DNA of 15,008 nt from a virus. Its lineage: Duplodnaviria > Heunggongvirae > Uroviricota > Caudoviricetes. Positions 2,790-13,596 of this stretch are shown here, in pieces. The notes below the pieces were generated by a model. That model was not told the DNA's origin. It worked only from the letters and a program-made list of their open reading frames with translations, and did no database searches. The stretch lies in IMG/VR virus record IMGVR_UViG_2703718837_000004, one strand, 5' to 3'. The translations under genes and the position numbers were made by a program. Within the stretch, counting starts at the first letter, position 1; the number at the start of each line of letters is the position of its first letter.

Positions 2790-3887
2790 CTAGGGTTTTA
2801 GCAGTGCATTAGAAATTTCATCAATAATCACTGAGTATTTGGTGATTTCGTTTTCGTGAAAACATCTGAATTTATCATTAAATTTTACTAATGATATTAA
2901 ATATGAACGATAACCAGCTAACTTATTAGAGAATTGTGAATTATAAAAATCCGTTACAAACTGATCTGCATTGTTATTATACTTGACAGTTGGTGATTTA
3001 ACAGAAAATACTTTTTTGCAAATATGCTCTTTAGAATATCCCTTTTTAAATTTATCTAGTGCTTTCCGTATTAAATACATTTTTCCATTAGATATTCTTA
3101 TACTCCCTCTCTCTCCCCCTCCATTTTTATTTTCTATTACATAGCCGTTTAGTGAGATTATGCCTTTCTTAAATATTTTTTTATGTTTGTTGAGGGACAG
3201 TCCTGCCGTATTGACAATAGTTGATATCTCGTTGTCAAAATGTTCACTTCCAAGAAGTTTGTCTTTCCCGGAGCTCGAAAAAAGCATATCATCAGCATAA
3301 CGAGTGTAAATGATGCTTCTTTTGTCACACAAACTTTTAATTAAAATATCTAACTTTCTGAAAATTATATTGGATATGAAAGGTGATGTGGCGAATCCCA
3401 TTGGAAATATTTTTTTCTTTTTATTGTTGACTACAATCTCAATAGATAAACTATTTAAAAATGCATCAATAACTTTGATTTTTTTATTTACCAGATATTC
3501 ATCTTCAAAGTAGGATTTGAAACACTCCCTTGCAAAGTTATAGTTTATGTTATGAAAAAAATTACATAAGTCAATTCGACAAAAGTTCTCACCATGGATA
3601 TGAGGTTCTAGAAAATTCAAATAGTTTAATTTTTTACGATAGGCAATTGCAGGTGAGCTAAGAGGAACTTTTACTAGGAAATTTTTTATAAGTCTTTCTT
3701 GTATTTTTTTATGCGGGGAGCTTTTTCTTATAGTGAAACATAATCTATTCTTTAATGAAATGCTTTTATAATCGTCATTGGAAATCTCAGGGACTCCGTG
3801 AGTCATAATAATATCATCGGAGAATGTTTCTCTTAGATAAAAATTTTTATAAAAATCATTGTTAATTTTATTAATTTTATGTTTCAT
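2790..3887 (-). CDS. Reverse transcriptase (defence-associated type; retron-like or Abi-P2-like), 365 aa
   Basis: RT motifs readable in the translation: motif A …CRIDLCNFFHNI, motif B …FPMGFATSPFISNIIF, motif C …YTRYADDMLF (YADD). AGGAAG RBS 7-8 nt upstream of the ATG. Same strand as, and 120 nt downstream of, the OLD-like gene. Confidence 0.8.
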   Translation of the reverse strand: MKHKINKINNDFYKNFYLRETFSDDIIMTHGVPEISNDDYKSISLKNRLCFTIRKSSPHKKIQERLIKNFLVKVPLSSPAIAYRKKLNYLNFLEPHIHGENFCRIDLCNFFHNINYNFARECFKSYFEDEYLVNKKIKVIDAFLNSLSIEIVVNNKKKKIFPMGFATSPFISNIIFRKLDILIKSLCDKRSIIYTRYADDMLFSSSGKDKLLGSEHFDNEISTIVNTAGLSLNKHKKIFKKGIISLNGYVIENKNGGGERGSIRISNGKMYLIRKALDKFKKGYSKEHICKKVFSVKSPTVKYNNNADQFVTDFYNSQFSNKLAGYRSYLISLVKFNDKFRCFHENEITKYSVIIDEISNALLKP

Positions 3888-3893
3888 GTAAAA

Positions 3894-4043
3894 GCTTCCT
3901 CTTCGATACCAATAACATCTTTACACCCCGTGAGGCTTAAAGCGGCTTAGCGGACGCAAGACAATCCGAGCTAGTGTTTGCTGGAGCAAGTGACGGCATG
4001 CGTCAGCTCATTTGAGCCCTCCAGCTTCTATCGAAGAAGAAGC
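3894..4043 (-). ncRNA. Candidate structured ncRNA (retron msr-msd-like) bracketed by a 15-nt inverted repeat
   Basis: Arms at 3894-3908 (gcttcctcttcgata) and 4029-4043 (tatcgaagaagaagc). In the minus-strand transcript they pair over 15 positions (14 Watson-Crick plus one G.U); on the plus strand that position would be a C.A mismatch. Nested stems: gctggag 3980-3986 with ctccagc 4019-4025, and tgacg 3991-3995 with cgtca 4001-4005. Local G+C is clearly higher than in the flanking AT-rich genes. The distal arm sits immediately 5' of the RT start and contains its RBS; the proximal arm overlaps the last codons of the ATPase gene. Confidence 0.3.
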
Positions 4044-6272
4044 ATGATCGATGATATGCGAAATTTCAGGAAAAGCCAAGCGGAATTTTTTTTCGACATT
4101 TTCTTTATCTAGGGCTGAATAATGATTAAGGCTAAAATCAATGAAGCTTGTAACCCATCCAGAAGTCTTTCCTATGTAAGAACTCATAAAAGAGAAATTT
4201 TCTGACTTTAATGCTTTGATATAATCCAATATATCTTGCCGTATCGGTTTTTGATCAATTTTATAATGCATTTCTATACTTACAAGAGTTTCTGTTTTGC
4301 CACTAAAAATAAGGCGCAAGATAGCAACTTGGTCTTTTACGTCGGGGATGGTTTTTTTAAACTCATCAATTATTTCTTTAGCATATCTAATTTTAATGAT
4401 TTTCAATAATCTCATGTGTCGCAATGGTAGGTTATGATTTGTTTCACATTTTGAAAGTATTTTGGGAAAAAGTTGTTTTGATTGGGTTTTAATATCGTAT
4501 TTTTGCAGCAGAGCATTAATCATTTTTACAGGGTTTTTATTATTTACATTAAAGCTTCTCATTACTATGTCAATGATCCATAAAGAGAATGTCTCTAAAG
4601 AGAATTCATTGATCAATGAGCCTTCTATCGTTGTAGAAGTATAATAAACATTATCTTTAGAGGATAAAAAATTAACTGCGCTTATAACTCTGCCTATACT
4701 GAAGTGTCTGAATTTTAGGCCATTTTCACTGAATGTTACTTTCCTTTCATCTTGGCTTAAAAGAAATTTTGCTGCGTTAAGAAAAGGTTTTTGGTATGTC
4801 GAAAAATAGTGTAGTTTATCTCTCTTAATGATTTTATTAATAATTGATTTCCCTTTCGAATTAAATTTAAATTGTTCATGTTCGAAGTCAACAACGGCAA
4901 TCTGATCAATATCCTTTACTACTAGAAATGGGATGGCTGCATTTGAGTAGCTGGGGTTTATATTTTTCAACATTACTTCATCGCAATCATACACATCTAA
5001 CCTTTTAAGTACTGGAAACAGCTTTTGCAGATTATAATTTCTAAACAATTCAACTTCTGTGGCGCCCTCTACAAATAGAATGTATTCACTAAAGAATAGA
5101 CGGGCCTCATTATCGCTAAGCATATTTATAAATCTAATGTCATTATATTTAGAGTTTAATTTTGAAATTTTGGTCGAGTTGTCACGTTCTTTTGAAAAAT
5201 GCAAAACCTGCTGTTTATGTAAGAAAGATTTTAGCGTGAGTTTTAGTAAACTCGGAGAATGAGTGCTAAATATAAGAGTTGGATATGGTGTTGAATATTT
5301 TCCAGGCTCAATTTCCTCATGGGTTTTATCATACTTTTTATATGTCAGGCTTATGTTCTCAATAAAGTTCTCGCTAAGTTTTGGATGTAGCCCAATTTCA
5401 GGTTCATCAATATATATAATTGGATTGATAAATTCTGTTCTTGTTAATGAAATTAATAGGCTAAGTATAATTTCAAGATATTTGTGAGAGTTCGTGCCAT
5501 CCGACTGAACATGTAGTTCTTCACCTTTATTTATGAAAATATCGCCATCTAAAACTATTTTTAGATAATTAACGACTTTATCTTTATAGGTGTAAGGTTT
5601 AGTATGGATTACATTTTCAACTCTTTCTATATACTTCTTGTAACTACCCCGCTTAGTTGATATTTTCTCATTCAAAAACTCAAGGAGTTCTTCTTTTTTT
5701 ATTTCAGAGAAATTAAAGGAATTTATACTGCTGAGCATTTTCCATATGCTATTCCAGTCGTATAAGTCAATGTGTCTGGTTTCAATATGGAAAAAAGGAA
5801 ATAGAGTTTTAATTAGATGCCGGGCATTTGGTGTGCTAATTGACCAAGTTACGGAGTCATCTTTAGAAATTGTGAGTGTAATGCTATAAGTGCTTTTTCT
5901 TTGGAAACCCAAAGGAGATATGAAAGGAAGACAGAATTTCTGCGGCTTTCGGATGAATGATTGTGGCTTAAATAAAGTGTTATAAATATGCTTGTGAAAG
6001 CGACCATTGTTATTAGGGTTCATTACAATTCTCTTTATTCTTGTTACATCATAAGTCAATGTTATTGACCCTGAAGGAGTATAACTAGAATGAAAATCAG
6101 GAGGTATTACTTTTATGTCGTCAAGTTTGTCGTAAAAATATTTCAATATTTTCATAAGATTGGATTTGCCAACATTATTCATCCCTACAATGCAATTTAC
6201 ATCCTCTAGGGAATTTATTATTACATCATTAAATGATAGTAAGTTTTTTATTCTTATGCTTTGCAAACCCAT
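4008..6272 (-). CDS. OLD-family ABC-type ATPase / Toprim nuclease-like protein, 754 aa
   Basis: Walker A GMNNVGKS (aa 30-37), Walker B/D-loop IIYIDEPEIGLHP (aa ~285-297), H-loop FSTHSP (aa ~335-340). Toprim signature follows: ILFVEGATE (aa ~398-406) and FLVVKDIDQ (DxD, aa ~449-457). About 200 aa of C-terminal extension. RBS AAGGAA upstream of the ATG. Confidence 0.8.
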   Translation of the reverse strand: MGLQSIRIKNLLSFNDVIINSLEDVNCIVGMNNVGKSNLMKILKYFYDKLDDIKVIPPDFHSSYTPSGSITLTYDVTRIKRIVMNPNNNGRFHKHIYNTLFKPQSFIRKPQKFCLPFISPLGFQRKSTYSITLTISKDDSVTWSISTPNARHLIKTLFPFFHIETRHIDLYDWNSIWKMLSSINSFNFSEIKKEELLEFLNEKISTKRGSYKKYIERVENVIHTKPYTYKDKVVNYLKIVLDGDIFINKGEELHVQSDGTNSHKYLEIILSLLISLTRTEFINPIIYIDEPEIGLHPKLSENFIENISLTYKKYDKTHEEIEPGKYSTPYPTLIFSTHSPSLLKLTLKSFLHKQQVLHFSKERDNSTKISKLNSKYNDIRFINMLSDNEARLFFSEYILFVEGATEVELFRNYNLQKLFPVLKRLDVYDCDEVMLKNINPSYSNAAIPFLVVKDIDQIAVVDFEHEQFKFNSKGKSIINKIIKRDKLHYFSTYQKPFLNAAKFLLSQDERKVTFSENGLKFRHFSIGRVISAVNFLSSKDNVYYTSTTIEGSLINEFSLETFSLWIIDIVMRSFNVNNKNPVKMINALLQKYDIKTQSKQLFPKILSKCETNHNLPLRHMRLLKIIKIRYAKEIIDEFKKTIPDVKDQVAILRLIFSGKTETLVSIEMHYKIDQKPIRQDILDYIKALKSENFSFMSSYIGKTSGWVTSFIDFSLNHYSALDKENVEKKFRLAFPEISHIIDHASSSIEAGGLK

Positions 6273-6376: not shown

Positions 6377-6400
6377 TCATTATTATGCATGTAATAATGA
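6377..6400. promoter_or_regulatory. Palindrome in the presumptive cargo promoter region (tcattatta-tgcatg-taataatga)
   Basis: Perfect 9-bp inverted repeat with a 6-bp spacer, 105-128 bp upstream of the ATPase start in AT-rich DNA. Operator-like; no cognate regulator gene is visible. Confidence 0.25.
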
Positions 6401-6648
6401 ATTACAAGTTTTCATTTTGCTTGGAATCAATTTTTTCACTCAGGTAAAGTAATTTTTGCGAGTGACTGTATGATACGGTCTCAATAGTATTAGAGCTTGA
6501 ATTCAGAATTGCAGTGATGCTCATTGTGCGGCTACTTTCACTGTATGCCATCCATGTCTGTTTCTCGCTCAAAGCAGGCTGTCAGATTTGATAGCGTTTT
6601 GGCTACGTATTTTGTCAGTTGGAAATTGAGAGAGTGCAAATCAAGGCT

Positions 6649-6675
6649 GGCGGGCTGATTGCCCGCCTTTTCTTT
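6649..6675 (+). terminator. Rho-independent terminator between the cargo island and the FI promoter region
   Basis: Stem GGCGGGC (6649-6655), loop tgatt, GCCCGCC (6661-6667), then TTTTCTTT. Would stop read-through from the H-G transcript before the F operon. Confidence 0.6.
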
Positions 6676-13475: not shown

Positions 13476-13502
13476 AAAAAATAAGCCCGTGTAAGGGAGA
13501 TT
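13476..13502. repeat. att core (27 nt, aaaaaataagcccgtgtaagggagatt), right copy, overlapping the cyaR terminator
   Basis: Matches the P2 att core as recalled. The first 20 nt are repeated exactly at 478-497. Phage arm lies to the left, bacterial DNA (cyaR, yegQ) to the right. Confidence 0.75.
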
Positions 13503-13562
13503 ACACAGGCTAAGGAGGTGGTTCCTGGTACAGCTAGCATTTTATGGGTTATGTTTTTCAGC
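13476..13562 (-). ncRNA. cyaR: CyaR (RyeE) Hfq-dependent small RNA
   Basis: Minus-strand sequence GCUGAAAAACAUAACCCAUAAAAUGCUAGCUGUACCAGGAACCACCUCCUUAGCCUGUGUAAUCUCCCUUACACGGGCUUAUUUUUU matches the E. coli CyaR sequence as recalled. Includes the C/U-rich seed and a terminator hairpin plus U-tail whose 3' half is the att core. Confidence 0.7.
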
Positions 13563-13596
13563 GAAACGGATGATAACCTTAATAAATGCAGCTGTA

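Follow-up and report, generated by a model that had tools for sequence, protein, structure and literature searches.

A probable msr-msd RNA of the Eco8 retron family in the cargo of a P2-like prophage

The observations outlined below are consistent with a reading in which a 150-nt element at 3894-4043, on the minus strand of a 15,008-nt stretch of DNA (the window, i.e., the whole stretch that was analysed), is very probably the msr-msd noncoding RNA (ncRNA) of a three-part type I-B2, or Eco8-family, antiphage retron carried as cargo by a P2-like prophage. The other two parts are an OLD-family nuclease and a reverse transcriptase (RT), and the order on the minus strand (OLD at 6272-4008, ncRNA at 4043-3894, RT at 3887-2790) is the type I-B2 order. 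The architecture is a known one, and this locus is a diverged member of the family, not a new kind of retron. The prediction of type I-B2 retrons and of the ncRNA family that goes with them dates from 2020 (PMC7736814); the layout, in which a class 3A OLD gene lies upstream of the ncRNA and the RT, has been published (PMC10568477, PMC7736814); and Eco8 itself has been tested genetically and solved by cryo-EM, with branched msDNA seen in the structures (PMC13402713; bioRxiv 10.64898/2025.12.04.692459). A preliminary description of this DNA had read the element as retron-like and its overlaps with the flanking genes as unusual; the first part of that reading stands, and the architecture is that of the published class 3A OLD layout, for which Eco8 structures have been solved.

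Parts of the locus

The features to which we refer throughout are as follows, in the order in which they occur on the minus strand.

6272-4008, minus strand: OLD-family ATPase-Toprim nuclease, 754 aa, class 3A, upstream of the ncRNA (PADLOC, NCBIfam, PDB)
4079-4051, minus strand: candidate sigma-70 promoter, TTGGCT-17 nt-TATCAT, within the 3' end of OLD (consensus scan, 9 of 12 matches)
4043-3894, minus strand: probable msr-msd ncRNA of the retron, 150 nt with both arms included (covariance model R1, alignment to Eco8)
4043-4029, minus strand: arm a1, GCUUCUUCUUCGAUA, which also codes for A-S-S-S-I near the OLD C terminus
4028, minus strand: predicted branching (priming) G, ncRNA position 16, invariant in 17 of 17 sequences and aligned with rG18 of Eco8
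4027-3971, minus strand: msr region, ending in AAACAC-UAG (fold; architecture as the dsRa, RSLa and RSLb of Eco8)
4025-4019 with 3986-3980, minus strand: enclosing msr stem (fold, covariation)
4018-4005, minus strand: hairpin RSLa, which contains the OLD stop codon (fold, mapping to Eco8)
4004-3992, minus strand: hairpin RSLb (fold, covariation)
3979-3974, minus strand: putative RNA-DNA hybrid region AAACAC (landmark transfer from Eco8)
3979-3910, minus strand: predicted msd template, ncRNA positions 65-134 (homology to Eco8 landmarks)
3973-3948, minus strand: putative DSLb-equivalent stem-loop of the msd (landmark transfer from Eco8)
3942-3919, minus strand: putative DSLa-equivalent stem-loop of the msd (landmark transfer from Eco8)
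3909, minus strand: "opposing G" beside a2, ncRNA position 135, which faces the branching G (invariant G135)
3908-3894, minus strand: arm a2, UAUCGAAGAGGAAGC, which holds the likely Shine-Dalgarno sequence of the RT, GAGG, at 3901-3898
3887-2790, minus strand: retron reverse transcriptase, 365 aa (PADLOC, Pfam, PDB)

The inverted repeat and the fold

The element is bracketed by an inverted repeat with arms of 15 nt each (3894-3908 and 4029-4043), spaced 120 nt apart and 93% complementary as DNA. In the minus-strand RNA the two arms pair at 15 of 15 positions with a single U·G, and the same position read on the plus strand is an A·C mismatch in the outer stem. The plus strand, which has this mismatch and also folds less well, was rejected as the functional strand. 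The G+C content is 0.51 across the 150 nt versus 0.25-0.37 in the genes on both sides. Folded as minus-strand RNA, the element reaches a minimum free energy of -57.5 kcal/mol (z = -3.49), which 1 of 200 dinucleotide shuffles equals, and the fold consists of the outer stem, an inner stem around two hairpins, and two more hairpins. In each of these respects the preliminary description had been accurate: the repeat finder returns exactly the coordinates at which a 15-nt repeat had been said to bracket 120 nt, and the raised G+C, the perfect pairing in the minus-strand RNA alone, the nested stems and the stable folding that had been proposed as a check are all present.

How improbable is such a repeat? 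In first-order Markov simulations, about 0.9 repeats of at least 15 nt (G·U allowed, spacing of 60-250 nt) are expected per strand per 15 kb; the one at 3894-4043 is the sole such repeat on the minus strand of the window, and it has a single G·U. The repeat by itself is thus only modestly improbable, and since it is not decisive once G·U pairs are allowed, we have relied on comparative data, which, as judged from the homologous loci described below, place it beyond chance.

Comparison across homologous loci

Related loci (n = 24) were collected from a second E. coli variant (L001), 15 proteobacterial genomes and 9 contigs, the last chosen for RT homologues of graded similarity. An inverted repeat of 14-17 nt is found at the same position in all 24; its 5' arm ends in (G/C/U)AUA and then G, its 3' arm abuts the RT start, and the G directly after a1 is present in every repeat-bearing locus. 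The arms themselves are not fixed. At least seven arm sequences occur among the lineages, including GCUUCUUCUUCGAUA, GCUUCAACCCGAUA, GCUUCAACCUAGAUA and GGCUUCGCCCUGAUA, each with a matching partner, and the further lineage-specific sequences GUUUCUUCUGCGAUA, GCUUCGUCUCGAUA and CUUUAGUCUGAUA are matched by their partners as well.

In a MAFFT alignment of 17 ncRNAs (A3), the outer stem is 99.6% paired and 10 of its 15 pairs have changed on both sides; the arm ends of the homologues were located by a repeat search, which inflates the percentage paired and is offset in part by the slid controls and by matches in held-out loci. None of 500 shuffles reached the observed values for this stem, and sliding the partner by 1-3 columns lowered pairing to 41-51%. 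A covariance model (R1) built from the 17-ncRNA alignment gives a single match in the window, at 3894-4043 on the minus strand (144 bits, E = 2.2e-39), the window sequence being part of the training set; it also recovers eight held-out loci, each immediately upstream of the RT and on the RT strand. When the alignment is fitted to the model, pairing stands at 97.7% for the outer stem, at 82.6% for the enclosing msr stem (all 7 pairs covarying) and at 94.6% for RSLb (all 4 pairs covarying). The msd hairpins are more variable (56-77% paired in the model-based alignment, the DSLb equivalent being poorly conserved), and they, DSLb above all, are tested less cleanly, the MAFFT alignment being unreliable in the variable msd region. 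The a1/a2 stem, the enclosing stem and RSLb are kept by compensatory changes across the family. The search for such changes that the preliminary description had called for therefore came out in favour of the element: the repeat is present in the 24 homologous loci and its arms covary, the reverse of the outcome that had been named as fatal to the reading.

No DNA of the cassette is better conserved than the stretch between DSLa and a2, both included. Positions 3894-3946 are 92.5% identical to L001 over 53 nt, whereas nothing else in the 3.7-kb cassette still matches as DNA; the proteins of the L001 variant are 43% (RT) and 52% (OLD) identical to those of the window.

Searches of Rfam returned no match at 3894-4043 at gathering thresholds over the whole window, and nothing relevant to the ncRNA site at E ≤ 10 over 3700-4300. 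Rfam appears to be without a model for this ncRNA type, and the result has no bearing on retron membership.

Two further observations concern more distant or less regular loci. Many of the Firmicutes relatives of the RT (L018-L050) have inverted repeats of 11-20 nt, 140-215 nt apart, upstream of the RT, with a 5' arm that ends in AGUA or AGCA and then G; these sequences suggest that the Firmicutes branch of type I-B2 shares the a1-G architecture, and the covariance model trained on proteobacterial loci did not detect these repeats. In Vibrio maritimus (L010), a weak ncRNA match (45.5 bits) lies at 3291-3488 and the upstream frame reads through the ncRNA; the OLD gene there may be disrupted, or frameshifted in the draft genome.

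The two proteins

The 754-aa OLD protein matches the PADLOC model ATPase-Toprim_I-B (E = 1.6e-210), passes the NCBIfam equivalog retron_eff_Eco8 with 654 bits against a cutoff of 250, and carries the RefSeq name "retron Eco8 family effector endonuclease." It matches the Retron Eco8 OLD nuclease in the PDB at E = 3e-227 and is 47% identical to Eco8 OLD over 591 aligned residues. Its motifs are intact, namely Walker A GMNNVGKS (K36), Toprim EGATE at 402, DID at 454 and FHKH at 92. The Toprim signature of type I-B2, i.e., EGxxE in motif IV and DxD in motif V (Mestre et al., Table 1, PMC7736814), is found in the window protein.

The 365-aa RT matches the PADLOC model RT_I-B (E = 2.7e-106) and Pfam RVT_1. 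All of its best PADLOC matches are retron RT models and its best PDB matches are retron RTs, with the Retron Eco8 reverse transcriptase as the best solved relative (E = 6.5e-88; 41% identity to the Eco8 RT, P0017). YADD is found at 197, PMG at 162, LNG at 246 and LEPH at 93. The PADLOC RT models for type I-B1 and type I-A retrons score far lower (E = 9.3e-27 for the other RT_I-B model and E = 3e-25 for RT_I-A). An Abi- or DRT-type RT with an ncRNA was considered and rejected, the Drt2 and group II intron models falling far below their cutoffs and below the retron models.

With these proteins on either side, the earlier proposal of an msr-msd organisation is borne out by a1 and a2 on the coding strand, a G after a1, nested hairpins, an RT of the retron clade and an OLD-like effector.

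Relation to Eco8 and to other systems

One of the collected loci, L083, provides a bridge to the solved system. Its RT matches the PDB Eco8 RT over the full length (374 of 374 residues, 807 bits), and the RNA upstream of that RT reproduces exactly all of the published Eco8 landmarks (bioRxiv 10.64898/2025.12.04.692459; PMC13402713): in the RNA, rG18, RSLa at 28-45, RSLb at 46-61 and the rA73-rC78 hybrid; in the 75-nt msdDNA, dC1-dT10, DSLa at 11-34, TTA at 35-37, DSLb at 38-61, A62-A69 and GTTTTT at 70-75. Aligned with the Eco8 ncRNA, the window ncRNA has the same base at 103 of 150 positions (69% identity).

Retron-Eco8 (E. coli 200499) and the window locus share the order OLD, ncRNA, RT and the 15-nt a1 sequence; a branching G right after a1 and an opposing G before a2; an msr made of an enclosing stem and two hairpins, the dsRa, RSLa and RSLb architecture of Eco8 (bioRxiv 10.64898/2025.12.04.692459), and an msd with two hairpins; a DSLa that agrees at 20 of 24 nt; a stop region that is rich in A and has UAG after it; and, in OLD, F92, H95, K36 and the Toprim EGxxE and DxD motifs. 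Two conserved guanosines flanking the retron repeats have been described (PMC13402713). Mutation of rG18 in Eco8 abolishes defence (bioRxiv 10.64898/2025.12.04.692459); the opposing G in Eco8 is not templated.

The two also differ. The proteins are only 41% (RT) and 47% (OLD) identical, the window ncRNA is 150 nt versus 165 nt in Eco8, and its arms are 15 nt versus 17 nt. RSLa is shorter in the window, the sequence of DSLb differs, with no evident single-stranded linker after it, and the predicted msDNA is about 70 nt versus 75 nt. Two protein contacts of Eco8 are not conserved: RT F51 (termination), which aligns with C50/F51 of the window RT, and the FDYY loop of OLD, which is replaced by HYFSTY. 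Given these changed contacts and the different DSLb, the exact stop point, the trigger specificity and the details of activation may differ from those of Eco8. In the Eco8 structures, F92 and H95 of OLD pack against nucleotides of DSLa and clasp the msDNA loop. Because F92 and H95 of the window protein sit in a stretch identical to Eco8 (NNGRFHKHIYNTLFK) and 20 of 24 nt of DSLa are identical, the comparison argues for the same lasso contact between OLD and msDNA.

By analogy with Eco8, we predict an msDNA of about 70 nt, 5'-CAATAACATCTTTACACCCCGTGAGGCTTAAAGCGGCTTAGCGGACGCAAGACAATCCGAGCTAGTGTTT-3', with two stem-loops and an inferred 3' end; its ends would be 5'-CAATAACAT...GCTAGTGTTT-3', with a 2'-5' linkage to G4028. 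As the DSLb equivalent is poorly conserved and there is no evident single-stranded linker of the Eco8 type, the exact fold and the 3' end of this msDNA are uncertain.

The second E. coli variant (e.g., strain 675SK2, locus L001) has the same layout and the same a1 as the window and is 92.5% identical from DSLa to a2. It differs in its proteins (RT 43%, OLD 52% identical), in the a2 G·U wobble, which falls at another pair, in the msr hairpins and DSLb, and in its context beside IS630 remnants. Further away, retrons of type I-B1 (class 3B OLD) and type I-A (Ec78, Ec83; Septu-like PtuAB) likewise combine a retron RT and an msr-msd RNA with an ABC-ATPase nuclease effector that is kept inactive by msDNA (PMC7736814, PMC13402713), but their effector lies downstream of the RT, their RT belongs to another clade and their msd has a single stem-loop.

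AbiP2 is an RT of the Abi/UG group, without an msr-msd RNA and without an OLD partner; the window RT, in contrast, matches retron models and not Abi or DRT models. The AbiP2 RT of P2-EC30, at the same P2 variable locus as the retron here, is likewise a case of RT-based defence (Odegrip et al. 2006, as cited in PMC9122126).

Genomic setting and alternative explanations

The window is 100% identical to E. coli UPEC85, in which the cassette lies in a P2-like prophage. The cassette sits between the tail-fibre-assembly gene and the tail-sheath gene of this prophage, the classic variable locus of P2-like phages. Between the cargo and the tail-sheath gene, the plus strand has a strong terminator-like hairpin at 6649-6667, GGCGGGC...GCCCGCC with a T-run after it; the tail-sheath start is annotated at about 6772, and the list of open reading frames extends that frame to a TTG at 6619. 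A hotspot of P2-like phages at which retrons occur alongside other defence systems has been described (PMC9122126).

The only real Rfam match in the window is a full-length CyaR/RyeE sRNA at 13479-13564 on the minus strand (100.7 bits). It lies between the prophage ogr gene and trhP (yegQ), and thus the P2-like prophage ends beside cyaR; the ogrK remnant of E. coli K-12 ends next to cyaR in the same way.

RefSeq has no annotation under the ncRNA, and a literature search on the two RefSeq protein accessions found no paper. The lineage, with an RT 41% and an OLD 47% identical to those of Eco8, appears to be uncharacterised.

Is the retron still active? It could be real by ancestry and now be an inactive relic, in which the RNA structure persists but no msDNA is made and no defence is provided. 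The rarity of the lineage speaks for such a relic: it occurs in 2 of 5,426 complete E. coli genomes (the L001-type variant is in 36 complete E. coli genomes), and a search of deposited phage genomes gave no match to the cassette. Some of the Eco8 contact residues also differ. However, both frames are full length with every catalytic motif intact, and members of the same clade (RT 71-90% identical) are found in Serratia, Proteus, Morganella, Providencia and Pectobacterium. In the four clade loci that were sampled the ncRNA is kept, with compensatory changes in the hairpins (e.g., a G-C to A-U change in RSLa), which implies ongoing purifying selection. We therefore regard a relic as improbable.

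A second alternative is that the stem is purely regulatory, i.e., an RNase III site, a translational coupler or an attenuator in the mRNA, and is not reverse transcribed. With a1 overlapping the region of the OLD stop codon and the RT Shine-Dalgarno sequence lying within a2, the stem could have an effect on translation whatever its other roles. An intrinsic terminator was considered and rejected, there being neither a U-tract nor a terminator-like site at the element. A purely regulatory stem is also contradicted by its 120-nt interior. This has conserved features specific to retrons, namely a branching G and an opposing G, both invariant, and the stop region AAACAC-UAG, and it can be aligned base for base with the ncRNA of Eco8, the branched msDNA of which was seen by cryo-EM (PMC13402713). 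This alternative has very little left to recommend it; the stem could act in regulation as well as serve as a template, but not instead.

That the repeat and the G+C rise are a by-product of coding constraint or chance, as the expectation of about 0.9 such repeats per strand in 15 kb and the coding nature of the first 36 nt might suggest, is effectively refuted by the covariation of the arms and retains a negligible probability, since 114 of 150 nt lie outside any long reading frame and since, between cassettes with proteins only 43-52% identical, no DNA is better conserved than the noncoding 3' half.

Overlap with the flanking genes

The OLD and RT reading frames are separated by 120 nt. The OLD stop codon, TGA at 4010-4008, corresponds to ncRNA positions 34-36, so that the OLD frame runs through a1 and the G that follows and ends within the first msr hairpin; at the other end, the RT ATG at 3887-3885 begins 6 nt after a2. 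These overlaps had been described correctly from the start but regarded as unusual, which they are not: the OLD stop falls inside the ncRNA (positions 8-45) in 24 of 25 family loci, Eco8 among them. The distance from the end of a2 to the RT start is 2-9 nt in most family loci and 30 nt in two, and in two others a2 overlaps the called start. The a1/OLD and a2/RT-start overlaps are a family trait.

The 15 nt of a1, which encode Ala-Ser-Ser-Ser-Ile, are identical at the nucleotide level in 10 of 17 aligned loci, and the identity holds between lineages whose OLD proteins are about 47-52% identical, despite the sixfold degeneracy of serine codons. Because this identity outlasts both the divergence of OLD and the codon degeneracy, the alignment shows that an RNA constraint acts on the coding sequence at a1.

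A candidate internal promoter

Could the ncRNA and the RT be transcribed from a promoter of their own? On the minus strand, a -35-like TTGGCT (4074-4079) and a -10-like TATCAT (4051-4056) lie within the 3' end of OLD, and the -10 ends 7 nt upstream of a1. Promoter-like sites are, overall, no more numerous in this region than expected by chance. The hexamer, which comprises the third base of a variable codon and the Ile-Ile codons of the OLD C terminus, recurs as T-AT-N-AT in every one of the 23 homologues whose OLD C terminus has the x-Ile-Ile/Leu/Phe motif, sequences that are phylogenetically nonindependent; it was sought at the window position in L001, L003-L017 and L083-L090, and it ends 5-7 nt before a1 in 20 of the 23. 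Its first T is kept across eight codons (His, Tyr, Ser in two codon families, Asp, Gly, Arg and Ala), always as T versus a background third-position T frequency of 0.40. This pattern suggests an internal promoter that starts an ncRNA-RT transcript at a1.

We offer, tentatively and as a possibility that we ourselves doubt, the broader idea that the ncRNA and the RT have their own promoter in the last codons of OLD and that the a1/a2 stem hides the RT Shine-Dalgarno sequence, which together would amount to a built-in circuit linking the RT and its template. If so, a1 would be the exact start of the RNA, ribosomes completing OLD would never unwind it, RT translation would be coupled to how its own template folds or is consumed, and the ratio RT : msDNA : OLD would be set. 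In the papers on Eco8 and type I-B2 that we consulted, we found no description of a sequence used in this way for both coding and regulation.

Separately, an AT-rich 15-nt inverted repeat with one G·U (AATTTATTATTACAT at 6212-6226 and ATGTAATAATGAATT at 6389-6403, plus-strand reading) straddles the OLD start codon (6272) and the region upstream of it, and a promoter-like site lies upstream of OLD on the minus strand, at 6407-6379. AT-rich repeats this long are not uncommon.

A proposed mechanism

The following model is based on Eco8 (PMC13402713; bioRxiv 10.64898/2025.12.04.692459; PMC10568477). The RT would bind the msr, prime on the 2'-OH of G4028 and copy the template from 3910 to 3979, where it would stop. 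RNase H would then remove the template, and the remaining molecule, a branched RNA-DNA, would comprise an msDNA of about 70 nt and a hybrid of 6 bp between AAACAC and GTGTTT. We posit that RT, msDNA and OLD would assemble into an autoinhibited 4:4:4 complex, and that binding of a phage SSB to the msDNA hairpins would open the Toprim nuclease, such that the cell would die before the phage matures. Abortive infection triggered by SSB is known for Eco8 only (PMC13402713, PMC10568477). A prophage-borne retron of this kind would shield the lysogen from other phages. More speculatively, the ncRNA-RT transcript might start at about 4043 from the promoter in the last OLD codons, and a1/a2 pairing might mask the RT ribosome-binding site.

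What the locus may offer

A structured RNA that is unannotated in RefSeq is thus very probably the template RNA of an Eco8-family retron, and base-level predictions are now at hand for its branching G, its template and its msDNA. The practical value is modest, and the current understanding of retrons is unchanged. The locus is a diverged natural variant in which DSLa and the clasp residues of OLD are as in Eco8 and the second DNA hairpin is different. Such a variant could help to dissect the msDNA features that set the specificity of the phage-SSB trigger, or could serve as a scaffold for retron editing. In addition, the family-wide overlap of a1 with OLD codons, together with the -10-like hexamer, provides a testable idea about how the operon may be transcribed and how its parts may be kept in balance.
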